Of a stretch of DNA of 32,000 nt, positions 4,297 to 28,082 are shown piece by piece. Origin of the DNA: Candidatus Pacearchaeota archaeon (GTDB lineage: Archaea; Nanobdellota; Nanobdellia; Pacearchaeales; GW2011-AR1); NCBI GenBank assembly GCA_016186365.1, contig JACPLT010000022.1:5777-37776 (forward strand), given 5' to 3'. Each line of letters starts with the position of its first letter. Positions within the stretch are counted from its first letter, which is position 1. The position numbers and the translations under genes were made by a program. A model generated the notes under the pieces. The model was not told the DNA's origin and made no database searches. It saw only the letters and a list, made by a program, of their open reading frames with translations.

Positions 4297-4297
4297 G

Positions 4298-12100: not shown

Positions 12101-12211
12101 GGGAGTTACGGATTCAATAGTAAAAGCAAAAACAAAATTCAAACTGATTAAAAATGCTATAATTATAGTTGTTGCAAATATAAACTTGCTAGATAAATTA
12201 TTTTTCACCAT
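9113..12211 (-). CDS. Large secreted, membrane-anchored, sequon-rich surface protein (1032 aa), paralogue of 7142..9037
   Basis: Its first 11 residues are identical to the paralogue (MVKNNLSSKFI). It shares a C-terminal module of about 190 aa (ASGGGGSA.SFW...EDHYVGVV...SSTPQQAVFN.GEEKKFDVDS...), a TP linker, a TM helix and YKKYN. Confidence 0.8.
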   Translation of the reverse strand: MVKNNLSSKFIFATTIIIAFLISLNFVFAFTIESVTPSYLNRTSNTRVNITLNNTDNVNITQLTITLPFETTFYANTNRTTAGDSVFTNTTAGPQKILIWTNTSQLTFFPNNTVQSFLFNISLANLGNVMFTNFTLTAKHIAGADNITSYNFRVDFAFSGYTKNETGGTETNVNVSMYRVAAGAGGPPTESYESSILSDSNGQFTFPNINGSASLYKLKMIRYGLAAGCISSNSTCNVTKIGTSLPYFPAMMFYPATADLPIFEFMRPPSLNGTSFYMQPAATLRLYANNWSEGIAGSAQKFGYQVTDQVSGFPTESNFMTSVSTVDIAVPIDRNFTVMFVRTPGNGNFGFTFHSLCNGSLMNDTTCPTPPVSNSTLGVLSQGQILVVNQSFVTNTYRLFGCINMSAGTNNSALNITSFSLKMIPWPGFVPPFRADMGDIDLDVNINYTASSLGCAFAFYNISAMGSASGLNYLIEAYAKNKTAAPDVYSANAWSLAAFQNITITGNRNYNLTLFRLAGNYNSSSGVNTSKIKINIVNSSGGAITTNMNANVRIKHPVTGTLTYIIESMSSGSFYMSILNNSNWAKIMVYSNDAPPREVTLNLSQSEANITMTTMSDGRGVGMKKINSTGQMEMINSTQLNSSLAINMRFLRNSEACNVLIPADSCVITNTSAKNFNPLTALVAGKINMEMKITSTGVTLMFMNFDMFSAKQPPMESIMNDRASSGASSTNQVWQFGSFAPKDAYSYVVIAMPFDDAAINDSADMSLSTPMLYDENWNAVWNRSRGDTSVNLTDDFIDYNSTALYRNYLSSSGINCSKTDSNLNVTPCYINTTSNMVYMRIPHFSGVSPGVSGSAPSSSSTTTASGGGGSAVSFWATTYVPIDSQFVSGYTQTLAKASRVKIKVSSEDHYVGVVSLTNTSATINISSTPQQAVFNIGEEKKFDVDSNNYYDISVKLNSISLSKANLTIKTINELMPQSPATPAETPETPSTPVSDSVETIEQKSSLSMWITLILVIIVVLVVAAYLIYKKYN

Positions 12212-13056: not shown

Positions 13057-14510
13057 TTTATAGGATTAAGCTGGTGATAGTGTTCAATCGCGCTTTTTAA
13101 TTTTAGTTTATTTTCAGAATAAATAGTAAGAAGTTTTTCTCCGGTTTTAACAGAATCATTCAGATGTTTATATAAATATATTCCTGCACTTCTGTCAATA
13201 GGACAGCCTGCTAATTTTGCAATTCGGTTAATCTCTTTTATATTAATATCTTTAATCTTCATGTTTTTTTCTGCTTTTATATCAAATTTGAATTTGGCTT
13301 TTTTTATTCTGTTAATATTTCCGTGCTGCGCTTTTACTATAGAAACAAATTTTTTGAATGCTGCTCCAGAATTAAGAATTTGGGCTGCAAGTTTAACCCC
13401 TTCCCCTTTTTTAGATTTTCCAGTCAGCTCGAATAGCTGTCCTGCTAACTCTAAAGAACGAGATTCAAGAAGGTGGCATTTATCCTCTCTTCTTAAAACT
13501 TTTAAAACATCTGCCATCTCCAAAGATGGACCAATTCCGTTTCCAAGAGGCTCATTAACCTCTTTCATAGAACAGCGAATTTTAATCTTAAAATGTTTTC
13601 CTATTATTTCAAATTTTTTCTTTAGCTCAAGTCCCTGCTTTCTTGTAACTTTGGCATATTTCCCATAGGGAATATCTATTAAAACATATTTGGAATTTGC
13701 AGCCAGCTTTTTTGAAATTATACTCGCAATAAGCTGGGATTCTGGGTCAAGATTAATTAATCTTTCGATTTGTATTATTTTATCATCTGCGGGCGCAAGG
13801 TTTAGTGCACCCCCCCAGACTAAGCAGGCGTGCTCTTTTGCAATAATCTTTTTCATTTCTTCTAAATTGAAATCAACTTTGCAGATAGTTTCCATTGCGT
13901 CTGCAGTTCCTGAAGGAGAGGTTATTGCCCTTGAAGAAGTTTTAGGAATTGTCAGCCCTCCGGCTGAGCAAATTGAAACTACAATCGGAGTGGTCCTGCC
14001 AGAAACTCCACCAATTGAATGTTTGTCTGCAATTTCTCCCCGCAGATTAATTCTTTTTCCTGTATCAACTATAGACTGCGTCAGACTTTCAATTTCTTTT
14101 ATTGACATTCCGCACTTATAGACTGCTGCGACAAAAAATGCTATTTCAGCCTCGGTAATTGCGTTTGAAACAATGTCTGATATAATTTCATGTATTTCTT
14201 CTTTAGATAAAGTTTTGCAGGAAAGTTTTTCATAAATCAAATCTAAGCTTTCGGGTTTTGCCGCTAAGTCCAGATTAATATAATCTTTTTCTTTAAGCGA
14301 GAGAGATTCTACAACTTCCATAGAGACAACAATTTCATCTTCTTTTACAAATCCAGTAGCAATATCTACTACTGCGATTATTTTTTTCCCTGAATGCTCT
14401 ATTGAAACTCTGTCATCCACATGAATATTGGAATTAGCTGCGGATTTTTTATTTAGAATTGCAACAGGTCTTCCTGCTGAAAATTTCATAAATTTAACTT
14501 TTAACTTCAT
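13053..14510 (-). CDS. deoA: AMP phosphorylase / thymidine phosphorylase family protein (archaeal DeoA type)
   Basis: It has the archaeal N-terminal extension (MKLKVKFMKFSAGRPVAILN) plus KHSIGGVSGRTTPIV and SSRAITSPSGTADAME motifs. An ATGA overlap joins it to the downstream gene. Confidence 0.82.
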   Translation of the reverse strand: MKLKVKFMKFSAGRPVAILNKKSAANSNIHVDDRVSIEHSGKKIIAVVDIATGFVKEDEIVVSMEVVESLSLKEKDYINLDLAAKPESLDLIYEKLSCKTLSKEEIHEIISDIVSNAITEAEIAFFVAAVYKCGMSIKEIESLTQSIVDTGKRINLRGEIADKHSIGGVSGRTTPIVVSICSAGGLTIPKTSSRAITSPSGTADAMETICKVDFNLEEMKKIIAKEHACLVWGGALNLAPADDKIIQIERLINLDPESQLIASIISKKLAANSKYVLIDIPYGKYAKVTRKQGLELKKKFEIIGKHFKIKIRCSMKEVNEPLGNGIGPSLEMADVLKVLRREDKCHLLESRSLELAGQLFELTGKSKKGEGVKLAAQILNSGAAFKKFVSIVKAQHGNINRIKKAKFKFDIKAEKNMKIKDINIKEINRIAKLAGCPIDRSAGIYLYKHLNDSVKTGEKLLTIYSENKLKLKSAIEHYHQLNPIK

Positions 14511-14546: not shown

Positions 14547-15575
14547 TTATTCTGAAAACAAGCTGGGGAACTTTTTCTCCCTATACGCATTAAGCACTAA
14601 AAGCAGATATGAAAGAATTAACGGACCTAAGATGAATCCTAAAAGCCCGAATACTAAAAATCCCCCAATCATCCCGATTATTACAATTCCAGAAGAGATC
14701 TTAACTGACCTTGAAACAAGATAAACTCTCAAAACATTATCTATCCATGAAACAAACAGCCCCCCATATAATGCCAGCCCTATTCCTGCAAAGACATGTC
14801 CAGATATTATTAGATAAATTGATGCAGGAATCCAGATTAGCCATGCGCCGACCATAGGAATTATTGAAGCAATTATTGCAAAAAAGGTTAATAACAACGC
14901 TTGAGGAATCCCAAAGATAAATAATCCTATCCCCGTAAATATCCCCTGAATAACTCCTACGACAAAATATCCGAATATAACTGCGCGAGTTATACTTTTA
15001 AATTGAGAGGAAATATCCTCTTCTGTGGATTTTGAGAATGGAGAAAGACTTGCGACATATCTCTTGAATATTTCTGCATCTCTCATTCCAAAAAAGAAAA
15101 CGAATAAAACTACTGCGAGTTTTAATCCCAATCCGGGAAGGTCATAAAGAGTGTTGGATGCACTTGATAAAATTTTTGAAACAAGATTTGACAAAAATGA
15201 ATTGAGCGAAACCGCAACATTCTGAGTCATCCCTATTTGAGAGAGCGAAGGAATAATTCCTCTCAAGAATGCCAGAACATCTATTTCTTGGGTGTAAAGA
15301 TAAATATCAAAAACTTCTTTTATTATTGCAGGAAGCAGAAACCAAAGAGGAATAAATATCAGCAATAAAACTAAAAATATTACCAGCAAAGCAGAAATGC
15401 TCTTTTCTCTTACTACTGAAAGAATCCTCTTATAAACTGGGAGAAATACATACGCAAGAATCAGCCCTATTATTACTGCACTTGCAATTGGGCGAAGAAC
15501 TATAAAAGTGAGAATTAAAAGAACTCCAATTACTAAAAAAATAGATAACTTTTTAAATGTCTTTTCGTCTATCAT
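14547..15575 (-). CDS. AI-2E family transporter (PerM/UPF0118-type permease)
   Basis: Polytopic membrane protein with the family-typical IIPMVGAWLIWIP segment. The palindromic TATA TTTATAAA lies 29 nt upstream of the ATG. Confidence 0.72.
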   Translation of the reverse strand: MIDEKTFKKLSIFLVIGVLLILTFIVLRPIASAVIIGLILAYVFLPVYKRILSVVREKSISALLVIFLVLLLIFIPLWFLLPAIIKEVFDIYLYTQEIDVLAFLRGIIPSLSQIGMTQNVAVSLNSFLSNLVSKILSSASNTLYDLPGLGLKLAVVLFVFFFGMRDAEIFKRYVASLSPFSKSTEEDISSQFKSITRAVIFGYFVVGVIQGIFTGIGLFIFGIPQALLLTFFAIIASIIPMVGAWLIWIPASIYLIISGHVFAGIGLALYGGLFVSWIDNVLRVYLVSRSVKISSGIVIIGMIGGFLVFGLLGFILGPLILSYLLLVLNAYREKKFPSLFSE

Positions 15576-16281: not shown

Positions 16282-16289
16282 TCCGAGCG

Positions 16290-16308
16290 AAGCATAATCT
16301 TTATAAAC
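16290..16308 (+). promoter_or_regulatory. Candidate promoter of the ribosomal-protein operon (GAGCGAAGCATAATCTTTATAAAC)
   Basis: A TATA box at 16300-16307 predicts a start site near 16329 and a leader of about 55 nt, with AGGA before ATG 16385. Confidence 0.4.
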
Positions 16309-16384: not shown

Positions 16385-17341
16385 ATGGGAAGAAAAAGCA
16401 AACATCGAGACGGATCATTACAATTTTGGCCTAGAAAAAGGTCAAGCAAGTTCTTACCTAGTGTTAACTGGGATGTTTTAAATGGGGAGAAAGGAATTAA
16501 GGGGTTTATTGCATATAAGGTGGGAATGACTTCCTGCCTTGTCAAAGATACTACTTCTAATTCTCTTACAAAAGATAAAAAAATTGTTCTTGCTGCCAGT
16601 GTTCTGGAAGTGCCTGCTATGAAAATATTTTCTATAAGATTTTATAAAAATGGGATTGTTTCAAAAGAGATAATTTCTGAAAATTTAGACAAGGAATTAA
16701 AGAGAGTGATTAGAATTCCGAAGAAAAAGAGTGAAAATATAGACAGCATTAAAGATTATGATGATATCAGGATTATTGCATATTCAAAAGTTGGAGAAAC
16801 TGGGATAAAGAAAACTCCGGACATGACTGAAATTGGATTGCAGGGAAGCCTGGATGAAAAATTAAAGTTTGTTAAGGAGCACATGAGTAAGGAAATTAAA
16901 TTTTCAGAAATATTCAAGCCTGGAATTCTTGTAGACATAAGAGGATTAACAACAGGAAAGGGATTAGAAAGCTCAATTAAAAGATTTGGATTGGGATTAA
17001 AAGGGCATAAAAGCGAGAAAGGGCAGAGAAGACCTGGAAGCTTGGGGCCGTGGCATCCTGCGCATGTAATATTCAGAGTTCCTATGGCAGGGCAGTTAGG
17101 GATGTTTACAAGAATACAATATAATTCAAAGATAGTTTGTATTGGAAAAATTGCTGAAAAGAATATTAATCCTGAAAATGGCTGGAATGCTTATGGAAAA
17201 ATAAAAACAGAATATATAATTGTTCCTGGAAGTGTTCACGGAACAGCTAAGAGGCAGTTATTGCTGACTAGTCCGTTAAGAGCTACTAAAACCCGAATAA
17301 AAAAACAATATGAATTTGTAAAATTAGGAGATTTGAGATGA
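16385..17341 (+). CDS. rpl3: 50S ribosomal protein L3 (uL3)
   Basis: uL3 sequence (FWPRKRS..., GHKSEKGQRRPGSLGPWHP), first gene of the S10-like cluster. Confidence 0.92.
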   Translation: MGRKSKHRDGSLQFWPRKRSSKFLPSVNWDVLNGEKGIKGFIAYKVGMTSCLVKDTTSNSLTKDKKIVLAASVLEVPAMKIFSIRFYKNGIVSKEIISENLDKELKRVIRIPKKKSENIDSIKDYDDIRIIAYSKVGETGIKKTPDMTEIGLQGSLDEKLKFVKEHMSKEIKFSEIFKPGILVDIRGLTTGKGLESSIKRFGLGLKGHKSEKGQRRPGSLGPWHPAHVIFRVPMAGQLGMFTRIQYNSKIVCIGKIAEKNINPENGWNAYGKIKTEYIIVPGSVHGTAKRQLLLTSPLRATKTRIKKQYEFVKLGDLR

Positions 17342-17436
17342 AACTTAAAATTTATACTAAATTAAACAGAAATTTTAAGATCTTGGAGATTTGTGAATCC
17401 CCAAGCTTTCAAATTCCTGATGGAGATTTGAAATGA
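17338..17436 (+). other. Relay ORF (32 codons, MKLKIYTKLNRNFKILEICESPSFQIPDGDLK) bridging rpl3 and rpl4
   Basis: Its ATG overlaps the rpl3 stop (ATGA at 17338-17341) and its TGA overlaps the rpl4 ATG (ATGA at 17433-17436). It spans hairpins at 17344-17379 and 17407-17433. Confidence 0.5.
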
Positions 17437-18215
17437 AAACAAAAGTAATAGATATTGAAGGAAAACAGGGAAAGGAAATTGAACTGCCAGAATGTTTTTC
17501 TGAAAGTATAAGAGAGGATATCGCACAAAAATATTTTGAAACAGAAAAAGTAATACAGCCTTATGCTCCTTACATATATGCAGGAAAACAGAAAAGTGCA
17601 AGCGGAATAGTAGCCCATGGAAGAAGACTATGGAAAACTGCTTATGGGCATGGAATATCAAGAGTTCCAAGAAAAATATTATGGAGAAGAGGAAAACAAT
17701 TTTATTGGGTTGGAGCTACAATTGCTTCTGCTAAAGGCGGAAGAAGGGCACACCCTCCAAGGATAGTTCATTTTTTGAATTATAAAAAAGTAAACAGAAA
17801 AGAAGCTGAAAAAGCTATGGCATCTGGAATTTCTGCAACAGCTTCGCAGGAATATGTTCAGAAAAGATACCCTGATATGAAAATTTCATTAAAATTTCCA
17901 ATAGTTGTTGAAAGCAAGATTATTGATGCGAAAGCGAAAAATTTTATAAGTTCTCTTAAAAAAATATTGGGGGAAAATTATGACTCTGCTATTCCAGTCA
18001 AAAGAAAGAATGCGGGGAGAGGAAAAATGAGGGGGAGAAAATACAGAAATTCTGCGGGTTTATTGATAGTTATCGGAAAGAACGAGAATATGAAGTTCAG
18101 CAGACTGGATATAAAGAAAACAAACGAGCTGAAGATTAGGGATTTATTTCCTTTGGGGAGGCTTGCAATTTATACTGAAAGTGCAATTAAAGATTTGGGA
18201 GAGATGAACAAATGA
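17433..18215 (+). CDS. rpl4: 50S ribosomal protein L4 (uL4)
   Basis: uL4 sequence (GGRRAHPP motif) in conserved gene order. Confidence 0.9.
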   Translation: MKTKVIDIEGKQGKEIELPECFSESIREDIAQKYFETEKVIQPYAPYIYAGKQKSASGIVAHGRRLWKTAYGHGISRVPRKILWRRGKQFYWVGATIASAKGGRRAHPPRIVHFLNYKKVNRKEAEKAMASGISATASQEYVQKRYPDMKISLKFPIVVESKIIDAKAKNFISSLKKILGENYDSAIPVKRKNAGRGKMRGRKYRNSAGLLIVIGKNENMKFSRLDIKKTNELKIRDLFPLGRLAIYTESAIKDLGEMNK

Positions 18216-18451
18216 TAAGCCCGATAACAACTGAAAAAGCAGTAAAATTAATTGAAATAGAGAATACTCTTCTTTTTAAAGTAGACAGCAGAATGGACAA
18301 AGAGGAGATAAAAAGCGAGATTGAAAAATTATTCAATGTGAAAGTTGAGGGAGTCAGAACATTAATGAAAGGAAATGAAAAAGTAGCTTATGTTAAATTA
18401 AACAAAAAGAATCCGGCTATTGATGTAGCAACTAAACTGGGGATGATATAA
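18212..18451 (+). CDS. rpl23: 50S ribosomal protein L23 (uL23)
   Basis: ATGA overlap with rpl4 and a uL23-like sequence (LLFKVDSRMDKEEIKSEIEKLFNVKVEGVRT). Confidence 0.9.
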   Translation: MISPITTEKAVKLIEIENTLLFKVDSRMDKEEIKSEIEKLFNVKVEGVRTLMKGNEKVAYVKLNKKNPAIDVATKLGMI

Positions 18452-18453
18452 AC

Positions 18454-18591
18454 ATGACTAAAGAATTAAATAACCAACAGGAGAAAAACAGTTTAAATAT
18501 GCACGAAACAAATGGCATATTTAAAATCCGGAAAATTAAGAATTTTCCGGCTCTTTCGTTCCGGGGGAACTCAAGATGGGAAAGAGAATAA
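18454..18591 (+). other. Relay ORF (45 codons) from 3 nt after the rpl23 stop, running through modules A-B-C and ending 16 nt inside rpl2 in another frame
   Basis: MTKELNNQQEKNSLNMHETNGIFKIRKIKNFPALSFRGNSRWERE. Through the modules it uses the same frame as the other copies. Confidence 0.45.
18492..18575 (+). repeat. Hairpin cassette copy: A (18492-18525), B (18528-18550), C (18558-18570)
   Basis: A is TTTAAATATGC/GCATATTTAAA with loop ACGAAACAAATG. B is CCGGAAAAT/ATTTTCCGG, showing a compensatory A>G with T>C change relative to the other copies. C is GTTCC-GGG-GGAAC. Confidence 0.85.
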
Positions 18592-19274
18592 TTCAACAGG
18601 CAAGGGGGCACGGAAGCTTAACTTATCAGGTTAGAAAAAGAGCATACATATATAGAATTGACTATCCAAAAGAAGAAGGCAAGGCAAAAGTGCTGGAATT
18701 GTTTAATTCTTGTGCACATTCATCTCCTCTCGCAAAGATACTATTCAACGGAAAAACATATTATATTCCTGCGTTCAGCGGAATGGTTGAGGGACAGGGA
18801 ATAAAGATTGGAGGAAAAGAAATTGAAAATGGAAATGTATTATTATTAAAAGATATTCCTGTCGGGACAAATATTTTTAATATAGAAATAAGACCGAAAA
18901 GCGGAGGAAAATTAGTGAGAGCGTCAGGATTGACTGCAATTGTTACAAAAAAAGCTTTGGGAAAGGTTTCGATAATGATGCCCAGCAAAAAAGAAATATC
19001 CTTGGATGAAAACTGCAGAGCATCAATAGGAATGAGTGCAGGCGAGGGAAGAAAAGAGAAGCCGATTATCAAAGCAGGAAAAAAATGGTATATGATGAAA
19101 GCAAGAAACAAATTATGGCCTAGAACTTCTGCTGTAAAGATGAATGCAATTGACCATCCGTTTGGAAGCGGCAGAGGAAAAAGAATTAAGCCAAAGATTG
19201 CCAAGAGAAATGCGCCTGCTGGAGCAAGAGTAGGATTAATAAGACCAAGAAGAACAGGGAGAAAGAAGAGATAA
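18576..19274 (+). CDS. rpl2: 50S ribosomal protein L2 (uL2)
   Basis: uL2 sequence (MNAIDHPFGSGRGKR, C-terminal RRTGRKKR). Confidence 0.92.
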   Translation: MGKRIIQQARGHGSLTYQVRKRAYIYRIDYPKEEGKAKVLELFNSCAHSSPLAKILFNGKTYYIPAFSGMVEGQGIKIGGKEIENGNVLLLKDIPVGTNIFNIEIRPKSGGKLVRASGLTAIVTKKALGKVSIMMPSKKEISLDENCRASIGMSAGEGRKEKPIIKAGKKWYMMKARNKLWPRTSAVKMNAIDHPFGSGRGKRIKPKIAKRNAPAGARVGLIRPRRTGRKKR

Positions 19275-19275
19275 A

Positions 19276-19320
19276 ATGAAACTTAAAAAATTAAATAAAA
19301 AAAATATTTTAAAAATCTGA
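19276..19320 (+). other. Relay ORF (14 codons, MKLKKLNKKNILKI) starting 1 nt after the rpl2 stop
   Basis: Its TGA (19318-19320) lies in the loop of hairpin AAATC-TGAG-GATTT, 12 nt before the rps19 ATG. Confidence 0.4.
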
Positions 19321-19340
19321 GGATTTATTAAAATGGCAGA
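19307..19340 (+). repeat. 34-nt block TTTTAAAAATCTGAGGATTTATTAAAATGGCAGA, identical to 26575-26608
   Basis: Exact match that includes the start codon and next five bases of both rps19 and rps5. Confidence 0.9.
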
Positions 19341-19749
19341 TTTAGGAAAAAAACCGGAATTTGAAAAGAAGCAGTTTTTTTATAGAGGGAAAACTCTTGA
19401 AGAATTAAAAAAACTTGATACAAGAGAGTTCGCTAAATATGTTCCTGCGAGAGAGAGAAGGACTATACTTAGAAATTTTGATGTTATTGAGGAATTCGTA
19501 AAAAGATGCAATAAAAAAATGGAAAAAGGAAAACAGATAAGAACACATTTAAGAGATATAATAATAGTTCCGCAGATGGTTGGAATGATAATTAATATTC
19601 ACAACGGAAAAGAGTTTACACAGGTAAAAATAGTAGAAGATATGTTAGCCCATAGATTAGGAGAGTTCGCGATAACAAGAAAAGAAATTAAACATGGAGC
19701 TCCTGGAATCGGCGCGACAAAGAGCTCTGCTTCAATGTCAGTTAAGTAA
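19333..19749 (+). CDS. rps19: 30S ribosomal protein S19 (uS19)
   Basis: uS19 motif MLAHRLGEFAITRKEIKHGAPGIGATKSS. Confidence 0.9.
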   Translation: MADLGKKPEFEKKQFFYRGKTLEELKKLDTREFAKYVPARERRTILRNFDVIEEFVKRCNKKMEKGKQIRTHLRDIIIVPQMVGMIINIHNGKEFTQVKIVEDMLAHRLGEFAITRKEIKHGAPGIGATKSSASMSVK

Positions 19750-19758
19750 GGAGAAAAA

Positions 19759-20424
19759 ATGGAACGAGAATATATTAAAAATAAGAATGAACAAAAAAAA
19801 GAAAATGTAGCTGGAAACAAAATAGAAAATCCAAAAGACTTGCCTAAACAGGAAGCTCAAAATGTTGAGAAAAAAGAAGAGGACACAAAAACTGAAATCA
19901 AGGAAGAAGTTAAAACTGAAGAGAAGAAAGGAAAGGAAAAGAAGAAGCAAGAGAGAAAAATAAGAGAGCAGGCAGTTGTTAATGGAAAAGACTTGGGAAT
20001 TTCAAAAAAACAATCAATGGACATATGCAGGTTCATAAAAGGAAAGAGAGTTGAGCAGGCAATTAAAGAGCTTGAAGAGGTGGTTAAGATGAAAAGAGCA
20101 CTGCCTATGAGAGGAGAAATTCCACACAGGCATGGAATGATGTCAGGAAGGTATCCTAAAACTGCATGCGGAGTTTTTATAATGCTGCTTAAAAGTTTGC
20201 AGTCAAATGCGAGCGAGGGGGGAATAATGACTCCTCAAATAATTATGGCAAAGGCGAATAAAGCGTCGAGACCATTCAGAAGATTTGGCTCAAGAAAGTT
20301 CAAAAGAACGCATGTTAGTTTAATTGCAAAGGAATATATAGTGAAAGACACAAATCTTTCCCTATCTAGCAGAGGACATACAGAGAAGTTATCAAAGTCC
20401 TCCGCTATAAGAGCAAAGAATTAA
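19759..20424 (+). CDS. rpl22: 50S ribosomal protein L22 (uL22) with a K/E-rich N-terminal extension of about 70 aa
   Basis: The core starts near GKDLGISKKQSMDICRFIKGKRVEQAI. GGAG lies 9 nt upstream of the ATG. Confidence 0.85.
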   Translation: MEREYIKNKNEQKKENVAGNKIENPKDLPKQEAQNVEKKEEDTKTEIKEEVKTEEKKGKEKKKQERKIREQAVVNGKDLGISKKQSMDICRFIKGKRVEQAIKELEEVVKMKRALPMRGEIPHRHGMMSGRYPKTACGVFIMLLKSLQSNASEGGIMTPQIIMAKANKASRPFRRFGSRKFKRTHVSLIAKEYIVKDTNLSLSSRGHTEKLSKSSAIRAKN

Positions 20425-20454
20425 AGAAAGAAGAAAACAAGGAGAAAAAGTAAA

Positions 20455-21126
20455 TTGGAAGAGAGAAAATTTATACAGCTTAAGAAAGAAGAATTCGGAG
20501 TAAAGGAATACATAAGACAGCAGATAGGAAAGGGAAAGCTTAGTTCGATCTCTATTGAATATACTCCTGTGGGAGAAAAAATAATATTGTCTACAAGCAA
20601 GCCCGGAATGCTTATTGGGAGAGGGGGAGAAAAGATTATGGAGCTGACTGAAATATTAAAGAAAAGATTCAAGCTTGAGAACCCCCATATAGAAATAAAG
20701 GAGATTGAAAAAGGTGAGCTTGATGCGCAGACAGTTGCAGATGAGATTGCAATGTTTTTAGAAAGAATGGGGAGCCTGAAATTCAAGGTAATAGCCTATC
20801 AGATGATTCAAAGAATTATCGCTGCAGGAGCAAAGGGAGTAGAGATAAGGCTGTCTGGAAAGCTTCCAAGCGAAAGAGCAAAAAGCTGGAGATTTGCAGT
20901 AGGGTATCTTAAGAAAACTGGGGATACTGCAAAGGTGGTCAATAAAGGAGAGGCGGTTGCTGAAACAATGATAGGAGTAATAGGGATAAAAGTCGGTTTG
21001 CTTCCACCGGACATAAAAGTTCATGATCAGATAGAAGTAAATCAGGAATTATTAAATCAGATAAAAAAGAATTTAGAAAGTTTAGAAGAGAAGAAAGAAG
21101 AGAACAAAAAAACAAAGAACAAATAA
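20455..21126 (+). CDS. rps3: 30S ribosomal protein S3 (uS3), TTG start
   Basis: KH-domain GMLIGRGGEKI. GGAG at 20441-20444 lies 10 nt before TTG 20455. The C-terminal tail is K/E-rich. Confidence 0.88.
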   Translation: MEERKFIQLKKEEFGVKEYIRQQIGKGKLSSISIEYTPVGEKIILSTSKPGMLIGRGGEKIMELTEILKKRFKLENPHIEIKEIEKGELDAQTVADEIAMFLERMGSLKFKVIAYQMIQRIIAAGAKGVEIRLSGKLPSERAKSWRFAVGYLKKTGDTAKVVNKGEAVAETMIGVIGIKVGLLPPDIKVHDQIEVNQELLNQIKKNLESLEEKKEENKKTKNK

Positions 21127-21127
21127 A

Positions 21128-21310
21128 ATGGCAATAATAAAAAACAAAGAAATTAAAAATTTGCAGAAGAAGGACATAGAGGAAAAATTAAAAGAATTAA
21201 GAATGGAGTTGGTGAAGAAGAATGTAACTGCAAATAAATCCGGGAAAATAAAAACAAAAGAAATTAAAAAGGCAATTGCCAGAATACTCACACTGTTAAA
21301 CAAAAAATGA
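21128..21310 (+). CDS. rpl29: 50S ribosomal protein L29 (uL29)
   Basis: 60-aa helical protein in the conserved position after rps3. Confidence 0.85.
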
Positions 21311-21606
21311 ACATATGTCCAAAATGCGGTTTACCAGAGCAAGCATGTGTCTGTGCGGACATCGCAAAAGAAGAACAGAAAATAAGAATAGGGACAGTGA
21401 AAAGAAAGTTCGGAAAGATAACAACTGTTGTCGAGGGATTTGACAGCGGAATTGACATAAAGGAAATAGCCAAAAAGTTAAAAAACGAACTTGCCTGCGG
21501 AGGAACAGTAAAAAACAACTCCATAGAACTGCAGGGAGATCACACCAAGAAGATAAGACCTGCTTTGGTAAAGTACGGGTTCAGAGATGAACAAATAACT
21601 GAGTAA
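21307..21606 (+). CDS. Translation initiation factor aSUI1 (aIF1)
   Basis: N-terminal Cys cluster [13 protein letters not shown] and the SUI1 motif [22 protein letters not shown] overlap with rpl29. Confidence 0.85.
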
Positions 21607-21613
21607 AACAAAA

Positions 21614-21979
21614 ATGAAACAAGAAAAAAATGAAACAATAGTGGAAAGCAACAAAAACAGCTGTAATGATAGCCAGTGCAATATTCATTCTGGGTTAAAA
21701 GTCAGAGGAAGAACATTTGACGGCTATGTTACTAAGAAGTTTAACAGAAGAGTTGTAATTGAATTTGAAAAAATAGTTTATATCAAGAAATATGAAAGAT
21801 ATACAAAGAGAAAAACAAAGCTTCATGCGAGAGTTCCATCTTGTGTTCAGGAAAAAGTTAAAGTTGGGGATTATGTCAAGGTAGGAGAGTGCAGACCATT
21901 AAGCAAGATTATTCATTTTGTATTTTTAGAAAAAATAAGAGATGCTGACAAGAAAAATAATGAAGGAGATTTGAAATGA
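21614..21979 (+). CDS. rps17: 30S ribosomal protein S17 (uS17)
   Basis: CNDSQCNIH...RGRTF N-terminus and VGDYVKVGECRPLSK. Confidence 0.85.
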   Translation: MKQEKNETIVESNKNSCNDSQCNIHSGLKVRGRTFDGYVTKKFNRRVVIEFEKIVYIKKYERYTKRKTKLHARVPSCVQEKVKVGDYVKVGECRPLSKIIHFVFLEKIRDADKKNNEGDLK

Positions 21980-22377
21980 AACCAGTATCCGCAAAAACAA
22001 CAAAAGCGTTGAATATAGGAAGCATGGTTAATGTTGCAGACAACTCTGGAGCAAGAATTGCAAGAATAACTGGAGTTAAGGGGGGAAAAGGAAAGAAAGG
22101 GAGACAAATGGGATGCAAGCTTGGAGACTGGGTAAAAGTTTCTATAAGAGCTGGAAATCCTGAAATGAGAGGGCAGTTAATGGACGCTGTGGTGATAAGA
22201 GTAAAAAAGCCATACAGAAGACTAACTGGAGAGAGAATTGCTTTCACAGACAATGCAGTAGTAATATTAAAAGATGAAAAGGGAAATCCAAAAGGAACGC
22301 AGATTAAGGGACCTGTTCCTAGAGAGATACAAGAAAGATGGAAGGAGGTTTCCAAATTATCCGGGATAATAATATAA
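21976..22377 (+). CDS. rpl14: 50S ribosomal protein L14 (uL14)
   Basis: VADNSGAR motif and ATGA overlap with rps17. Confidence 0.92.
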   Translation: MKPVSAKTTKALNIGSMVNVADNSGARIARITGVKGGKGKKGRQMGCKLGDWVKVSIRAGNPEMRGQLMDAVVIRVKKPYRRLTGERIAFTDNAVVILKDEKGNPKGTQIKGPVPREIQERWKEVSKLSGIII

Positions 22378-22378
22378 G

Positions 22379-22837
22379 ATGAAACAAAAATTTTCAACCG
22401 CTTGGATAGGAAGCAGACAGCCGAGGAAGCAGAGAAAATTCAGAGAGAATGCTCCGCTTCACATAAAGAGAGAGATGCTCGCGGCAAACTTAAGCAAAGA
22501 GTTAAGAAAGAAACTTGGGAGAAGAAGCATAATTGTAAGGAAAGGAGACATGGTCAAGATAATGAGGGGAGAGTTCAGAGGGAAGACTGGAAAAGTGAGT
22601 GTTGTGGAAACAAAGGATACAAGAGTGGCAATAGAAGGAATACAAAGGCAGAAGAAAGAGGGTTCAAAAGTGAATGTTTATTTTAATCCTTCAAATTTGC
22701 AGATTACAGAAGCAAATACAGAAGACAAGAAAAGAATAAAAATTGAAGAGAAGAAAGAGGAAGCGAAAACAGAAGGAAAGAAGAAAGAAGATAAAAAAGA
22801 AAAACAAGGAGAAAAAAATGCACCTAACAAGAAATGA
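22379..22837 (+). CDS. rpl24: 50S ribosomal protein L24 (uL24) with a K/E-rich C-terminal extension
   Basis: KOW motif VRKGDMVKIMRGEFRGKTGKV. The tail is EDKKRIKIEEKKEEAKTEGKKKEDKKEKQGEK. Confidence 0.88.
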   Translation: MKQKFSTAWIGSRQPRKQRKFRENAPLHIKREMLAANLSKELRKKLGRRSIIVRKGDMVKIMRGEFRGKTGKVSVVETKDTRVAIEGIQRQKKEGSKVNVYFNPSNLQITEANTEDKKRIKIEEKKEEAKTEGKKKEDKKEKQGEKNAPNKK

Positions 22838-23450
22838 AATACCTGTAAAATGGAGAGTCCAAAAGAAAGGGACAAAATATGTAGTTACAACAAGGTACTG
22901 CAAAGATAAATCTATTCCTGTTCTTGTTGCTCTTAGAGACATGCTTAAACTGGGGCAGGACAGGAGAGAAGTTGAAAAAATACTGGATATGAGCAAGATT
23001 AAAATTAATGGAAAAATAATAAAAGAATCAAGATACCCTGTAACAATTTTTGATATTCTTAATATTGGAGATAAAAACTATAGAATGATTATCCAGAATA
23101 AAAAGTTCAGTTTAGAAGAAGTTTCCGGAAAAGAGGCAAATGAAAAGATAGCAAAAGTTATTGGAAAAAAAGTTCTGAAGAAAAAAATAATCCAAATTAA
23201 TCTGGCAGATGGGAGAAATTATAAAACAAAAGAAAAAGCAAAAGTTGGAGATTCAGTAATTATAAATTTTAAAGAGAATAAAATTTCTGAAACTCTTCCT
23301 ATGAAAGATGGAATGAAAGCAATGTTCCTTAATGGAAGCAGGATAGGGAAAGTGGGGGAAATTGAAAAAATAAATGGGAAGGAAGCAATAATAATCCTGG
23401 ACAAAGAGAAAATAAATGCTAAACTAATCAATTTAATGGCGGTAAAATAA
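22818..23450 (+). CDS. rps4e: 30S ribosomal protein S4e (eS4); start moved to ATG 22818 (the track ORF begins at 22743 inside rpl24)
   Basis: MHLTRNEIPVKW is the typical eS4 N-terminus. GGAG lies 7 nt upstream. The gene overlaps the rpl24 end by 20 nt. Confidence 0.85.
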   Translation: MHLTRNEIPVKWRVQKKGTKYVVTTRYCKDKSIPVLVALRDMLKLGQDRREVEKILDMSKIKINGKIIKESRYPVTIFDILNIGDKNYRMIIQNKKFSLEEVSGKEANEKIAKVIGKKVLKKKIIQINLADGRNYKTKEKAKVGDSVIINFKENKISETLPMKDGMKAMFLNGSRIGKVGEIEKINGKEAIIILDKEKINAKLINLMAVK

Positions 23451-23451
23451 A

Positions 23452-23952
23452 ATGGCAAATGTAATGGAAGAGATAAGGATAGAAAAAGTTGTAATAAGTG
23501 TAAGCGGGACTGCGGAAAAGCTTGAAAAAGGAAGAAAATTGCTAGAAATATTGTCTGGAAAAAAACCTGCTAAAATGAAATCAACTAAAAGAATTCCCTC
23601 TCTAGGAGTCCGCCCGGGATTAGAAGTCGGAGCGCTAGTTACATTAAGAAGAAAACCTGCAATTGACCTTCTTAGAAGACTGCTTGCTGCTGTAGATGAT
23701 ACTCTTAAAAGAAGGCAGATTTCAGCAGGGACAGTTTCATTTGGGATAAAAGAGTATATTGAAATTCCAGGAATGCAGTATAACAGGGAGATTGGAATGG
23801 CAGGATTAGATGTGAGCATAAGCTTTTACAGATTGGGAAAGAGAGTTAAGATGAAAAAAATAAAGACTGGAAAGATACCTGCAAAAAACAAGATAAGCAA
23901 AGAAGAAGTTGAAGCATTTTTAGAAAATAAATTAGGAGTGAAATTAAGATGA
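23452..23952 (+). CDS. rpl5: 50S ribosomal protein L5 (uL5)
   Basis: IEKVVISVSG... and EYIEIPGMQYNREIGMAGLDVS. Confidence 0.9.
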   Translation: MANVMEEIRIEKVVISVSGTAEKLEKGRKLLEILSGKKPAKMKSTKRIPSLGVRPGLEVGALVTLRRKPAIDLLRRLLAAVDDTLKRRQISAGTVSFGIKEYIEIPGMQYNREIGMAGLDVSISFYRLGKRVKMKKIKTGKIPAKNKISKEEVEAFLENKLGVKLR

Positions 23953-24053
23953 AAAAACTTAAAAGTTTTTACCTATTAAATTTCAGGAGAAATTTAAGAT
24001 CCAGAAAATCTGATGATTTTCTGGCTTTTGATTTCCGGGGGAAATCAAAATGA
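23949..24053 (+). other. Relay ORF (34 codons, [34 protein letters not shown]) bridging rpl5 and rps14
   Basis: ATGA overlaps at both ends (23949-23952 and 24050-24053). Confidence 0.5.
23953..24049 (+). repeat. Hairpin cassette copy in permuted order: D (23953-23970), C' (23979-23994), B (24001-24024), C (24030-24046)
   Basis: D is AAAAACTT-AA-AAGTTTTT. C' is AATTTC-AGGA-GAAATT. B is CCAGAAAAT-CTGATG-ATTTTCTGG. C is GATTTCC-GGG-GGAAATC. Confidence 0.85.
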
Positions 24054-24280
24054 CTGCAAGCGACTGGAAGAAGATTACGAAACAGCTTAGAAATAAGAAA
24101 GCAAAACTAAGCAAATTCCTAAGACATAATAAACCGAAAGATAGAAAAACAGGAATAGCAAAATATAAATGTGAAAGATGCGGAAGGTTTGGGGCGCATA
24201 TTTCTTCATATAATCTAAATTTATGCAGACAATGCTTCAGAGAGATAGCTGAAGAAATTGGATTTAAAAAATACAGCTAG
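24050..24280 (+). CDS. rps14: 30S ribosomal protein S14 (uS14), zinc-binding type
   Basis: CERCGR...CRQCFRE (two CxxC pairs). Confidence 0.85.
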
Positions 24281-24288
24281 GAGAAAAA

Positions 24289-24666
24289 ATGAGCCAAGAC
24301 ACAATTTCAGATGGATTAAACCAGATAATGAACTGCAAAAGAGCAGGAAAAGATAATGTAGTCATAATTAGGTATTCAAAAGTTTTGATAAATGTACTGG
24401 AGATTGCGAAGAAACAAGGGTATTTAGATTATCAGCTTGATGAAAAAAATAAAGTATTAAGAGTGAAAATAAAAAGCCTGAATGAAGGCAGGGCAATAAA
24501 ACCAAGATTCTATGTTAAAGTTGAAGAAATTGAAAAATATGTAAGAAGATATCTTCCGTCAAGAGAGTTCGGGATAATCTTAATTTCAACAAGCAAGGGA
24601 TTAATTACACAGGCAGAAGCTTATGAAAAAAATATAGGGGGAAGCTTAGTAGCTTATTTTTACTGA
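24289..24666 (+). CDS. rps8: 30S ribosomal protein S8 (uS8)
   Basis: DTISDGLNQIMNCKRAGK N-terminus and GGSLVAYFY C-terminus. Confidence 0.9.
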   Translation: MSQDTISDGLNQIMNCKRAGKDNVVIIRYSKVLINVLEIAKKQGYLDYQLDEKNKVLRVKIKSLNEGRAIKPRFYVKVEEIEKYVRRYLPSREFGIILISTSKGLITQAEAYEKNIGGSLVAYFY

Positions 24667-25205
24667 TGGTGAGAAAACCGATAAAAGATGAAGTTGAAAT
24701 TCCAGAAGGAATGAACGCCGAGATAGTTGGAGATGTAATCAAGATAAGCAAAGATGGAAAGAGTGTTGAGAAAAAAATATGCTACGAAGCAAAGATAGAT
24801 GGAAAAAAGATAGTAATTGAATGCAAAAGCCCCAGTAAAAATGAAAAAAAGCTGATAAAAACTACAAAAGCACATATTAAGAATATGATCAGCGGATTAA
24901 ATGAAAAGTATGAGTATAAAATGCAAATTTGCGCGGTTCATTTTCCTATGACTGTAACAGCTGCAGGGAATGAAGTAATTATTAAAAATTTCCTTGGAGA
25001 AAAAAAAGAAAGAAGGGCACAGATAGTTCCGGATGTAGAAGTTAAAATAGAAAAGGAGTTTATCACAATTAAAAGTGCAAGCAAAGATAAGGCGGGGCAG
25101 ACTGCTGCAAATATTGAAAGAGCAACTAAAATAAAAAATAGAGACAGAAGAGTTTTTCAGGACGGGATATACATAACTGAAAAACAGAAGGGGGCTACAA
25201 GATGA
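24666..25205 (+). CDS. rpl6: 50S ribosomal protein L6 (uL6)
   Basis: TGATG junction with rps8, two-domain uL6 sequence, conserved order. Confidence 0.9.
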   Translation: MVRKPIKDEVEIPEGMNAEIVGDVIKISKDGKSVEKKICYEAKIDGKKIVIECKSPSKNEKKLIKTTKAHIKNMISGLNEKYEYKMQICAVHFPMTVTAAGNEVIIKNFLGEKKERRAQIVPDVEVKIEKEFITIKSASKDKAGQTAANIERATKIKNRDRRVFQDGIYITEKQKGATR

Positions 25206-25252
25206 AAAAACTGAAGTTTTTACCTCTTTCGTTCCGGGGGAACTCAAGATGA
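25202..25252 (+). other. Relay ORF (16 codons, MKKLKFLPLSFRGNSR) bridging rpl6 and rpl32e
   Basis: ATGA overlaps at both ends (25202-25205 and 25249-25252). Confidence 0.5.
25206..25248 (+). repeat. Minimal cassette: D (25206-25221, AAAAACT-GA-AGTTTTT) plus C (25231-25243, GTTCC-GGG-GGAAC)
   Basis: 25224-25251 is identical over 28 nt to 18551-18578 (the rpl2 leader). Confidence 0.85.
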
Positions 25253-25611
25253 AAAATATTAGATTTTTAAGAACAGGAACAAAAAGACACAAGAGATTGG
25301 GAAAGGCCAATAAAAATAAACAGATATGGAGAAGACCGAAAGGAAGGCACAATAAAATAAGGCAAAATGAAAAATCAAAACAAAGAAAAGTTCAAATTGG
25401 ATTCAGAAGCAAACCAGAAGAAAGAGGGAAGATAAAAGGCAAGCCGATGCTGCTAGTCCGGAATATTAAAGAAGCAGAAAATGTAAAGACAGGAGATTAT
25501 GTTATTATCGGAAAAATGGGAAAAAAGAAGAAAATAGAAATTGAAAAAGTCCTGGAAGATAAAAAAGCAGTCATACTTAACAAGAGGAAAGAAAATGAGC
25601 TTAAAAAATAA
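25249..25611 (+). CDS. rpl32e: 50S ribosomal protein L32e (eL32)
   Basis: WRRPKGRHNKIR motif. Confidence 0.85.
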   Translation: MKNIRFLRTGTKRHKRLGKANKNKQIWRRPKGRHNKIRQNEKSKQRKVQIGFRSKPEERGKIKGKPMLLVRNIKEAENVKTGDYVIIGKMGKKKKIEIEKVLEDKKAVILNKRKENELKK

Positions 25612-25981
25612 AAAAATGTTGATTTCAAGAGTACTGAATGTAGGAGTGGGAAGAATAAAACTTAATCCCAATGCTAAAACAGAGATAGAAGAAGCAATAA
25701 CTAGGCAGGACATCAGAGATTTAAAAGAACAGGGGATAATAAGGATTGAAGAAGTTAGTGGAAGAAAAATAGTGGAAAAGAGAAAGAAGAGAAGAGCAGG
25801 AAAAATAAAGAAGAGAGTTGAGGGAAAGGATAGTTATGTTGTGGTTACAAGAAAGTTGAGAGGGTATTTAAAAAATTTGAAGAGCAAGGGGCAGATAAGC
25901 AAGGAAAAATATTATGATTTAAGGAGAAAGACAAAAGCAAGGACTTTTAAGGGACTTTCGCACTTAAAGGAGTCAATATGA
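25595..25981 (+). CDS. rpl19e: 50S ribosomal protein L19e (eL19); start moved to ATG 25595
   Basis: MSLKNKKMLISRVLNVGVGRIKLNP is the typical eL19 N-terminus. The gene overlaps the rpl32e end by 17 nt. Confidence 0.85.
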   Translation: MSLKNKKMLISRVLNVGVGRIKLNPNAKTEIEEAITRQDIRDLKEQGIIRIEEVSGRKIVEKRKKRRAGKIKKRVEGKDSYVVVTRKLRGYLKNLKSKGQISKEKYYDLRRKTKARTFKGLSHLKESI

Positions 25982-26481
25982 TTAAAGTAAAAAAATTAAG
26001 AAGAAGAAAGGGAAAAACCGATTATAGAAGAAGGGTTGAGCTGCTGAAAAGCGGTAAACCGAGAATTGTATTTAGAAAAACAAATAAGTATATTATCGGG
26101 CAATTTGTCATGAGCAAAGAAGCTAAAGACATAGTAACTGAGGGGTTAACTTCAAAAAACCTGCTTAAATATGGCTGGCCAAAAGAAAATATAGGAAGCT
26201 TAAAATCATTAGGAGCCGCATATCTAACAGGATATTTGCTAGGAAAAAGAGTATTAGATAAAGAAGAGAAAGCGGAAGGTATACTAGATATTGGACTGAA
26301 TACCAGTGTAAAAAAATCCAAGATTTATGCTTTTTTGAAAGGGGTAAAAGAAGCAGGAGTAAAAATAGAGTGCGATGAAAAATTATTTCCTGATGAAAAA
26401 AGAATAATGGAAAGCGGGAAAATGAAAAAAGCAGATATTTTTAAAAAAATAAAGGGAGAGATAGATAAGAAACTGGCATAA
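25978..26481 (+). CDS. rpl18: 50S ribosomal protein L18 (uL18)
   Basis: RRRKGKTDYRRR motif and ATGA overlap with rpl19e. Confidence 0.88.
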   Translation: MIKVKKLRRRKGKTDYRRRVELLKSGKPRIVFRKTNKYIIGQFVMSKEAKDIVTEGLTSKNLLKYGWPKENIGSLKSLGAAYLTGYLLGKRVLDKEEKAEGILDIGLNTSVKKSKIYAFLKGVKEAGVKIECDEKLFPDEKRIMESGKMKKADIFKKIKGEIDKKLA

Positions 26482-26482
26482 A

Positions 26483-26599
26483 ATGATAAATAATGAATTA
26501 AATTTTGAGAGAAGTTCAGAAATGCACGAGGCAAATAGCATTTCTGAAATCCAGAAAATCGGGGATTTTCTGGCTTTTAAAAATCTGAGGATTTATTAA
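26483..26599 (+). other. Relay ORF (38 codons, MINNELNFERSSEMHEANSISEIQKIGDFLAFKNLRIY) spanning the rpl18-rps5 spacer
   Basis: It starts 1 nt after the rpl18 TAA and its own TAA ends 1 nt before the rps5 ATG (TAAAATG at both ends). Confidence 0.45.
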
Positions 26600-28078: not shown

Positions 28079-28082
28079 ATGA
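28026..28082 (+). other. Relay ORF (18 codons, MKKTNEFFASLNFRRNLR), the last link before rpl15
   Basis: ATGA overlaps at both ends (28026-28029 and 28079-28082). Confidence 0.45.

Follow-up and report, generated by a model that had tools for sequence, protein, structure and literature searches.

The ribosomal protein operons in a stretch of 32,000 nucleotides (nt) from Candidatus Pacearchaeota archaeon (contig JACPLT010000022.1; hereafter the window, meaning the whole stretch that was analysed) raise the question of why several of their intercistronic spacers carry recurrent hairpins, two of which, A and B, were reported in the initial annotation as a structure under selection. The contig is AT-rich (~34% GC) and derives from a DPANN archaeon with a tiny genome, its L2 protein being identical to a Pacearchaeota entry at NCBI; the spacers belong to the L1-L10-L12 operon (3649-5416, + strand) and to the archaeal L3-L4-L23-L2-S19-L22-S3-...-L30-L15-SecY cluster (16385-29933, + strand). 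We put at roughly 55% the probability that the hairpins form a lineage-specific family of mobile, modular, translation-compatible palindromic units, with a role at the RNA level in coupling and protection. The best-supported reading makes A and B two kinds of module within a larger unit whose terminal module, hairpin C, carries a putative Shine-Dalgarno site, and the units would serve, or at any rate persist, as translated spacers between cistrons. They occupy stop/start junctions and one leader of co-directional, highly expressed gene-expression operons in this Pacearchaeota clade, i.e. the L3-to-L15 ribosomal protein cluster, the L1 operon and RNA polymerase.

Four copies of hairpin A were found exactly where they had been annotated, each with an 11-base-pair (bp) stem closing a 12-nt loop and each on the + strand within a ribosomal protein spacer: in the leader of the L1 operon (3565-3598; TTCAAAAATGC and GCATTTTTGAA flanking the loop), the L2 leader (18492-18525; TTTAAATATGC/GCATATTTAAA), the S5 leader (26515-26548; TTCAGAAATGC/GCATTTCTGAA) and the L30-L15 spacer (27891-27924). 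Its 20-nt core ATGCACGAAACAAATAGCAT yielded four matches at up to three mismatches, with 0.01 expected. Hairpin B is present in five copies on the + strand, namely in the L1 leader (3601-3623, loop AGG), the L2 leader (18528-18550; CCGGAAAATT/AATTTTCCGG, a double compensatory change), the S5 leader (26551-26573), the L30-L15 spacer (27978-28000) and, with no A ahead of it, before S14 (24001-24024). The four copies of B originally listed and the double change in the L2 copy stand, whereas the true stems are longer (10 bp) and the loops shorter (3-4 nt) than described. Likewise, the AT linker thought to be fixed between A and B is present in three of the four copies but not in the L30-L15 spacer, where 53 nt separate the two modules and accommodate two further hairpins (27928-27947 and 27954-27974), the latter having an A-like stem that AAT separates from B.

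The CTTTT following B, previously regarded as a free tail, pairs as the 5' arm of hairpin C (e.g. TTTTGATTTCC-GGG-GGAAATCAAAA), the 3' arm of which ends at the ATG; a purine run similar to GGAGG lies 8-10 nt upstream of that ATG, either in the loop of C or in the 3' arm. Because of this purine run and its end at the start codon, C resembles a hairpin that presents a ribosome-binding site, a putative assignment that draws on the archaeal anti-Shine-Dalgarno sequence. In the L1 leader C spans 3625-3649 (+), with GAAGAG at its tip and a 3' arm ending on the A of the L1 ATG (3649); in the L2 leader it spans 18552-18575 (+), with a GTTCC-GGG-GGAAC core flanked by TCTT/AAGA; and the S5 leader holds the variant C2 (26575-26600, +) with an AAATC-TGAG-GATTT core. 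A C2-type hairpin also occurs in the L2-S19 spacer (19276-19332, +) together with the mini open reading frame (ORF) MKLKKLNKKNILKI (19276-19320), and 34 nt of the S19 leader (19307-19340) are 100% identical to 26575-26608 of the S5 leader (repeat D13). The tight junctions of the same operon have GGAGA ~5 nt upstream of the ATG. Altogether, module-bearing spacers of the window precede L1, L4, L2, S19, S14, L32e, S5 and L15. Of the 26 perfect hairpins of 8 bp or longer in the window, 16 sit within 1,119 nt of ribosomal protein spacer, i.e. 3.5% of the window (binomial P = 2e-17). The predicted spacer RNA folds (z-scores of -3.1 to -6.4) consist of independent hairpins one after another, among which no mutually exclusive alternative pairings were predicted.

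For comparison we used the same operon from relatives with 65-72% L2 identity (the nearest other L2 is only 72% identical to that of the window), and searched in all ~190 kb of partial sequence from 12 related genomes; comparison loci carry three-digit numbers. The same architecture, with different sequences, was found in spacers of four relatives (L027, L029/L030, L031 and L033) and in the fragment L035, with the order A-position hairpin, linker of 2-3 nt, B-type hairpin, CTTTT or TTTTT, C with a purine loop, and AAAATG. The A-position hairpins of relatives are AU-rich, e.g. TTCAAAAAT-TTAC-ATTTTTGAA or TTCAGAAACA-AGAAG-TGTTTTTGAA, mostly with loops of 4-5 nt, and B-type examples are CCAGAAATC/GATTTCTGG, TCGGAAATC/GATTTCCGA, ACAGAAAATC/GATTTTCTGT and CTTGGAGATTT/AATCCCCAAG. 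Two true homologues of the window A stem were identified in L027 (TCAGGAATGC...GCATTCCTGA and TCGGGAATGC...GCATTCCCGA), their loops of 12 nt (GGAAATCGTTGA) and 14 nt being unrelated to the window loop, and many units have no A or other hairpins in its place. In the Logan contig L034, which comes from the same study as the Logan contigs of the window, a fifth window-type A (TTCAAAGATGC/GCATCTTTGAA) with a new compensatory pair lies, together with B and C, directly upstream of RNA polymerase A' (Rpb1 domain 1). A scan of the GTDB genomes and the JGI metagenomes with the 20-nt A core ATGCACGARRCAAAYRGCAT returned 11 matches each (loci L003-L024), all of them single chance matches in bacterial coding sequence, many of which read ..MHEANGIGLAA.., presumably a peptide-deformylase motif whose likeness to the relay-ORF peptide MHE[TA]N[SG]I is fortuitous.

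The compensatory stem changes reported for the four window copies were confirmed there and extend to all seven A-type copies (those of the window, one in L034 and two in L027), in which 97.4% of cells pair and six of the 11 pairs have changed on both sides; none of 500 shuffles reached this level of pairing and covariation, and slid registers pair in 24-46%. A covariance model of A+B was built from four copies and subsequently used for search and alignment, including that of the B copies, for which a MAFFT alignment was out of structural register. Across 20 sense A+B units from six genomes, pairing holds in 96.2% of cells (shuffles, 76%), and both sides have changed in 18 of 21 pairs (shuffles, 11.5), figures that carry the caveat of an alignment fitted to the model. 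A clean T-A to C-G swap distinguishes the B stems of the orthologous L5-S14 units of L029 and L031. Additional copies from relatives retain the pairing rather than break it, and the conclusion that the A and B stems are under structural constraint stands. Furthermore, all model matches with E < 1e-3 fall in spacers that separate co-directional genes, one of them ahead of RNA polymerase A', and minus-strand matches are the same loci read backwards. All units run A-B-C in the sense direction; instead of the random scatter expected of a plain MITE, the strong matches are all sense-oriented at gene junctions.

The hairpins are accompanied by short reading frames that bridge the spacers. Nineteen of the 27 hairpin-bearing spacers in six genomes are spanned by one ORF of 14-56 amino acids, here called a relay ORF, while shuffling of the spacer interiors (n=1000) gave 2.28 +/- 1.1 spanning ORFs with a maximum of 7; none was found in the 12 co-directional hairpin-free spacers of the window. 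The start of a relay ORF lies -4 to +4 nt from the upstream stop (ATGA, TAAATG, TAAAATG) and its stop -8 to +15 nt from the downstream start, mostly at -2 or +3 and mostly as TAAAATG or ATGA. Where the ORF abuts no stop, AGGAG is found upstream of the ATG, as in the L1 leader, in L5-S14 of L031 and at the internal ATG of A in the L2 leader. In every copy, as already observed in the initial annotation, the ORF that crosses the spacer shares its frame with the ATG located in the 5' arm of A. The relay ORFs are thus real and statistically strong. They remain open even though B stems of 9 and 10 bp place the 3' arm in different frames (EIQKIGDFLAF vs EIQKSDNFWLLNFQR), despite a 51-nt insertion in the L15 spacer and despite two extra hairpins nested in the loop of a B'' hairpin in L027. 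Paired stem substitutions cause radical residue changes (Q/R, L/P, W/R/S), which indicates that pairing and openness are kept and not the peptide sequence.

In the window, the leader mini-ORF of L1, MHETNSIFEIQKIRDFLAFKL (3572-3637, +), starts at the ATG inside A with AGGAG ahead of it at 3555-3559. The L3-L4 relay ORF (17338-17436, +; 32 amino acids) has ATGA overlaps with both the L3 stop and the L4 start and contains a B''-type hairpin (17382-17405; CTTGGAGATT/AATCCCCAAG, with an A-C mismatch) and a hairpin C (17407-17433). The interval 18454-18591 (+), to which the initial annotation referred, is itself the L23-L2 relay ORF of 45 amino acids, starting 2 nt after the L23 stop and ending 15 nt into L2. 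ATGA overlaps at both ends also characterise the L5-S14 relay ORF (23949-24053, +; 34 amino acids), with modules D (23953-23970), a C4-type hairpin (23976-23997), B (24001-24024) and C1 (24026-24050), and the L6-L32e relay ORF (25202-25252, +; 16 amino acids), with D and C1'-type hairpins. The L18-S5 relay ORF (26483-26599, +; 38 amino acids) runs from a TAAAATG after the L18 stop to a TAA 2 nt before the S5 ATG. The L30-L15 spacer, one of the eight without a single spanning ORF, is covered by two chained ORFs of 102 and 18 amino acids with ATGA-type overlaps at all three joints: the first (27721-28029, +) overlaps the L30 stop, contains A (27891-27924), the two extra hairpins, B (27978-28000) and C1 (28002-28026), and its TGA overlaps the ATG of the second, MKKTNEFFASLNFRRNLR (28026-28082, +), which contains a C4 hairpin (28056-28077) and overlaps with its TGA the L15 ATG (28079). 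No similarity was detected between the N-terminal part of the 102-amino-acid ORF and the ORF at the same junction in L025. In L031 a hairpin (14317-14339) lies inside the 3' end of the L24 ORF, a possible in-frame fusion.

Comparison between genomes points to movement of the modules. Units are 83-91% identical between genomes, as compared with nucleotide identities of 72-80% for the flanking ribosomal protein genes and 48-64% for their third codon positions, and a unit more conserved than the surrounding genes requires either function or very recent spread. The units at L22-S3 of L029 and S19-L22 of L027 are 91% identical at non-orthologous junctions; exact words of 63 nt are common to L5-S14 of L031 and L22-S3 of L035, and of 48 nt to S3-L29 of L027 and L14-L24 of L029; the B''-C part of the window L3-L4 unit is nearly identical to its counterpart at L23-L2 of L029, the whole units being 79% identical. 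Near-identical units at non-orthologous junctions mean that modules move. Recombination of modules is also visible inside the window (repeats D3, D13 and D18), where in D18 the region upstream of L15 recurs before S14 with ATG changed to ATC. Moreover, the same junction may hold a unit in one genome and none in another: empty orthologous junctions read TAA-N-ATG, and in the filled ones the old ATG starts the inserted ORF and a new AAAATG stands at its end. Neither a transposase nor terminal inverted repeats of the whole unit nor an unambiguous target duplication was found in the sequences examined; the sole flanking repeat is ATG/AAAATG, itself a functional start motif, and each module is its own inverted repeat.

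In relatives the same junctions harbour further genes, among them unannotated ORFs of 54-130 amino acids. A free-standing LAGLIDADG homing endonuclease with helix-turn-helix domains (PF14528, E = 2.2e-14) lies at 3148-4089 of L029 (also in L030), between L2 (plus a 54-amino-acid ORF) and S19 in the ribosomal protein operon of a related Nanoarchaeota/Pacearchaeota metagenome-assembled genome, the gene caller having missed both this gene and S19 (4082-4468) in L029; in L025, MazG and NUDIX genes occupy such junctions. Foreign or selfish DNA evidently gains access to the operon at these junctions.

Extra ORFs of 54-137 amino acids between ribosomal protein genes were further noted in relatives, at 8641-8946, 13556-13843, 16941-17309 and 19442-20591 of L025, at 8330-8683, 9715-9996, 10699-11088, 14099-14308, 14743-15274 and 16820-17032 of L027, at 854-1126 of L032, at 3653-3874, 4666-4962 and 5203-5535 of L033, at 8124-8306 and 9110-9472 of L035, and at 8153-8467, 9622-9999, 10695-11006 and 13902-14201 of L037. 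Some are at junctions that also hold hairpin spacers (L3-L4, L23-L2, L2-S19, L14-L24, L5-S14 and L30-L15), others at L4-L23, S17-L14 and L32e-L19e, and a Pfam scan of ten of them identified no family. In the L4-L23 spacer of L037 (9232-9377) a 27-nt stretch, ATTAAATTTAAAATATAAAAAATGATA, is duplicated in tandem, and two unrelated hairpins lie after the two copies.

How such units could reside in essential operons may be pictured as follows. Termination-reinitiation coupling in archaea and bacteria, as measured with Haloferax and E. coli reporters, needs an overlap or a very short distance and is nearly abolished at ~20 nt (PMC10666635), and untranslated operon RNA in archaea is likely exposed to FttA-dependent polarity (PMC12548453). 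The array would be transcribed within the polycistronic mRNA, and ribosomes finishing the upstream gene would re-initiate on the relay ORF using the old start codon of the junction, open hairpins A, B and C on their way, and at the next start codon first terminate and then begin anew, so that an insertion of 50-350 nt would leave the coupling intact. A relay ORF would thereby be a simple way to house a spacer of this length without breaking the coupling or the polarity rule. When no ribosome passes, the hairpins would fold and protect the AU-rich spacer, with C displaying the Shine-Dalgarno site for direct initiation. Spread would occur by copy-and-paste between junctions, probably through recombination between similar translation-initiation regions, and the units may be largely selfish passengers that survive only in translation-compatible form.

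Several observations weigh against this interpretation. That the spacers are transcribed, the relay ORFs translated and the genes coupled we infer from sequence, and the distribution was judged on partial sequences of the 12 relatives. Since the units are homologous copies, the counts of units are not counts of independent events, 19 of 27 does not represent 19 independent events, and ORF-compatibility could have come along with the copied unit instead of arising by selection at the individual sites. In hairpin C neither the Shine-Dalgarno run nor the AUG is sequestered, so that a requirement for unfolding is not evident. The G-U wobble in one A stem had been put forward as a sign of RNA; among the 20 sense units, however, there are 4 G-U against 12 A-C mismatches, the sense RNA strand is not favoured, and the conserved A-C of the CTGGAGATT/AATCCCCAG hairpin would be G-U on the antisense strand. 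Both strands fold equally well, and wobble pairs were abandoned as a means of assigning the strand. The loops occur in both orientations (AGAAG/CTTCT, TCTCA/TGAGA), which points to the pattern typical of hairpin events at the DNA level. In addition, some A-type hairpins lie outside operon junctions (6520-6545 and 6706-6725 of L031, 7178-7249 of L027, upstream of the promoter-like GGTTTAAAAACCCC, and 3356-3416 of L035), so that gene starts are not quite the only places where the family occurs.

Much of this would suit purely selfish palindromic repeats acting at the DNA level (REP-, MITE- or organellar-hairpin-like) and devoid of RNA function, with stems kept for a recombinase or transposase or as single-stranded DNA hairpins and with the relay ORF and Shine-Dalgarno hairpin as no more than a filter for survival in essential operons with coupled translation. 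Near-identical units at non-orthologous junctions, their similarity far above that of flanking genes, their presence or absence at the same junction, the nested insertion in the B'' loop of L027, the loop flips, the excess of sense-strand A-C mismatches, and the homing endonuclease and many unannotated ORFs at the same junctions all agree with it. We nevertheless regard it as a doubtful, if serious, alternative, as the A-B-C order, the linkers and the sense orientation are kept across genomes at ~70% L2 identity, C is integrated with the start codon and the Shine-Dalgarno run, the GTAG or CGTC head of REP is absent, and the hallmarks of transposition named above were not found; it also overlaps with the reading as mobile translation-compatible units, differing only in denying a benefit to the host. 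The possibility that the relay ORFs encode functional micro-proteins, with the hairpins incidental to the coding sequence, is very remote. The ORFs are consistently open and well placed, the motif IFEIQK..DF recurs in relay peptides across genomes, and several differences between orthologous units of L029 and L031 are synonymous as read from the alignment; but this motif is explained by nucleotide conservation of the stems, the radical residue changes and the different frames of the B 3' arm argue against it, peptide length ranges from 14 to 102 amino acids with modules swapped, and a profile of the relay peptides searched against 5.8 billion proteins matched only one relative, in L034 (Logan).

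Regulation in trans, by a ribosomal protein, L7Ae or another RNA-binding protein recognising the A loop and/or B and co-regulating ribosomal proteins, was suggested by the conserved structure, by the position before L1, L2, S5 and L15 and by the 12-nt A loop, nearly invariant in five copies of the window genome or a sister genome. Known autoregulatory leaders of ribosomal proteins are single-copy, operon-specific mimics of the rRNA binding site. The bacterial S10, spc, L10 and L1 leaders and the archaeal L1 site of Methanococcus are likewise structured RNAs directly upstream of ribosomal protein genes, whereas the modules here are interchangeable, shuffled among junctions and placed before at least eight different genes, among them RNA polymerase A', and match no Rfam ribosomal protein leader or k-turn. 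Neither sequence nor length of the A loop is kept in relatives, its occurrence in both orientations argues against an oriented recognition site, and many units lack A or replace it. The loop conservation within one genome results from recent copying, the S5 and L15 units being identical from the A 3' arm through B to CTTTT and 19307-19340 equalling 26575-26608. A recognition site in the A loop and a ribosomal protein leader thus both lose their ground, and we consider this explanation improbable. Still less can be said for a transcription attenuator in which B and a U-run form a terminator controlled by translation of the leader or relay peptide, enforcing coupling or tuning distal genes: three B copies on the + strand fit a loose bacterial hairpin-plus-T-run pattern, and the hairpins share their sequence with a short ORF, much as leader-peptide attenuators do, but the T-run comprises just T4-T5 and is paired within C as its 5' arm, terminator-like sites are not enriched (7 vs 6.3 in shuffles), the folds offer no alternative hairpins, and it is difficult to see why transcription should end within an operon whose ribosomal proteins are needed in equimolar amounts. 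CTTTT was accordingly dismissed as a terminator tail. The host, moreover, is an archaeon, and to our knowledge archaeal termination relies on oligo-U tracts and FttA, with hairpin dependence not established.

Modules resembling those of the units were also seen elsewhere. A long non-coding region of L031 (6490-6730) holds two hairpins, TCAGAAGCA-AGAAA-TGTTTCTGA and TCAAGAAC-ATCA-GTTCTTGA, each with TTCTATGAAYTYTGA ahead of it, the second stem being the same as that of the extra hairpin at 27928-27947 in the window L15 spacer; these are possibly small RNAs or stray modules. The module pair TCAAAATC-GNAA-GATTTTGA, CAGTGC, TCARGAA...TTCYTGA was found at 6824-6878 of L027, at the start of an 88-amino-acid ORF after a Fic gene, and at 10730-10790 of L036 in the L2-S19 spacer, which shows further module types outside ribosomal protein junctions. 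Upstream of L3, one conserved non-coding motif, TTCTGTCAGCTGGTTACTGRCAAAA, occurs in L025 (7560-7600), L033 (2390-2420), L036 (7850-7880) and L037 (7146-7175), and another, GTTTTAACTAT...AATTATGG.GATATAAACTGAAACTYAAC, in L027 (7299-7388), L031 (7640-7731) and L035 (7025-7165), downstream of the promoter-like GGTTTAAAAACCCC and with a 46-nt exact word common to L027 and L035; both are possibly operon leaders.

The absence of a known leader or repeat family for A-B, stated at the outset from inspection, was borne out: Rfam gave no match for the whole window at gathering thresholds or at E <= 1, and for 26470-28100 only chance hairpin matches far below threshold. Scans of viral contigs with the B and B'' patterns returned nothing. 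A full-text literature search found no description of such relay-ORF hairpin spacers in DPANN or other archaea. REP/BIME elements are short (20-40 nt) imperfect palindromes, extragenic within operons and arranged in mosaic arrays, and are thought to stabilise mRNA or to act at the DNA level (PMC3733652, PMC12306157); their definition includes a GTAG or CGTC tetranucleotide head and recognition by RAYT (PMC3733652). The hairpins of 20-34 nt repeated in the spacers resemble them, but the stems begin with TTCA, CCAG, TCGG or CTTGG and no copy has either head, the units seen here have one gene-relative orientation where REP copies run in both, often as inverted pairs, and they are spanned by ORFs, end in a Shine-Dalgarno hairpin at the start codon and reside in an archaeal host; no RAYT transposase was seen in the partial genome sequences examined. 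MITEs share the mobility, with copies at non-homologous sites and filled as well as empty orthologous junctions; as to the flanks, no terminal inverted repeats lie round a whole unit, and ATG/AAAATG, the one flanking repeat, doubles as the start motif. The BOX elements of Streptococcus pneumoniae (boxA-boxB-boxC) are modular intergenic hairpins in variable numbers, with inter-element insertion and some with ORFs (PMC10969869). They are bacterial and differ in sequence from the units, which are likewise modular, hairpin-forming and intergenic. BOX elements occur in both orientations and are not known to be linked with start codons or translational coupling.

Closest in translatability are the Rickettsia palindromic elements (RPE), palindromic repeats that have spread in a reduced genome and are open in frame (PMC10969869), as compared with the 19 of 27 ORF-spanned spacers here (2.3 expected). 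However, RPE are ~100-150 bp long and fused in frame inside host proteins, the units being separate mini-ORFs with stop/start overlaps, and an archaeal host and the far smaller size of the units make homology in sequence unlikely. Small selfish hairpin repeats invade intergenic regions of compact organelle genomes (sponge mitochondria, Volvox; PMC2800124, PMC2670323), where, unlike the units, they are not reported to be spanned by coupled ORFs. In pairs known to be coupled by termination-reinitiation or by RNA unfolding (Haloferax and E. coli overlaps, IF3-L35-L20, MS2 coat-lysis), ATGA or TAA-N-ATG joints occur with hairpins round the downstream ribosome-binding site (PMC10666635, PMC12548453, PMC6728339); relay ORFs similarly overlap or abut their neighbours by a few nt, but the coupling would here pass through a dedicated ORF that belongs to no gene and is assembled from hairpin modules. 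The units are not members of the REP/BIME, BOX, RPE or ribosomal protein leader families. Other candidates were likewise rejected: a TATA box or leaderless promoter in TTTTAAAAAT before S5 and S19 is too near the ATG and, by eye, missing from other C variants; UGAUGA/CUGA strings in B loops and A arms, taken as C/D boxes, k-turns or k-loops, are by eye inconsistent among copies and have no Rfam match; integron attC sites disagree with the much shorter hairpins, the lack of a core-site pattern by eye and the location in an essential operon; and there is no regular repeat-spacer array as in CRISPR.

A few features of the window and its surroundings were noted in passing. The window S3 appears to start with TTG at 20455 (LEERKFIQLK) after a 30-nt spacer, and all relatives start it with ATG (MEEKKFVQLK), 1 nt past the L22 stop or after a hairpin unit. 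On the - strand, 7142-9037 and 9113-12211 encode two large paralogues of 631 and 1032 amino acids with 80-84% identical blocks, the shorter having a Big_3_3 Ig-like domain; their upstream regions are likewise duplicated (repeats D5-D8) and they are probably surface proteins. A GC-rich non-coding stretch at 6731-6845, GAGCGAAGCGAAGTC...GACCCCAGAATGGGCGTCGGCG...GAGGGAGGCGCGAAAG, stands out from the AT-rich background, and 16282-16300, after a gene ending at 16281, has a similar start, GAGCGAAGC; neither has an Rfam or tRNA match, and a tRNA search of the window found none.

These spacers offer a natural test case for translational coupling, as mini-ORFs with exact stop/start overlaps at either end cross gaps of 50-350 nt in an essential operon, and they give meaning to stretches now left blank in annotation or called hypothetical proteins of 53-102 amino acids. 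Genome-reduced DPANN archaea tolerate, or even use, moving hairpin modules inside their most conserved operons, next to homing endonucleases and small genes of no known family at the same junctions. We tentatively propose, as a bolder possibility that we hold to be unlikely at present, a hitherto undescribed kind of mobile element of DPANN archaea in the form of a translationally transparent palindromic cassette, which would insert exactly at start codons of tightly coupled essential operons, take the old start codon for its relay ORF, supply a new Shine-Dalgarno hairpin and a stop/start overlap, and might spread by recombination after cuts by the free-standing homing endonucleases that enter the same junctions. 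If true, this would constitute a new class of selfish DNA and a natural proof that coupling is indispensable in archaeal ribosomal protein operons.

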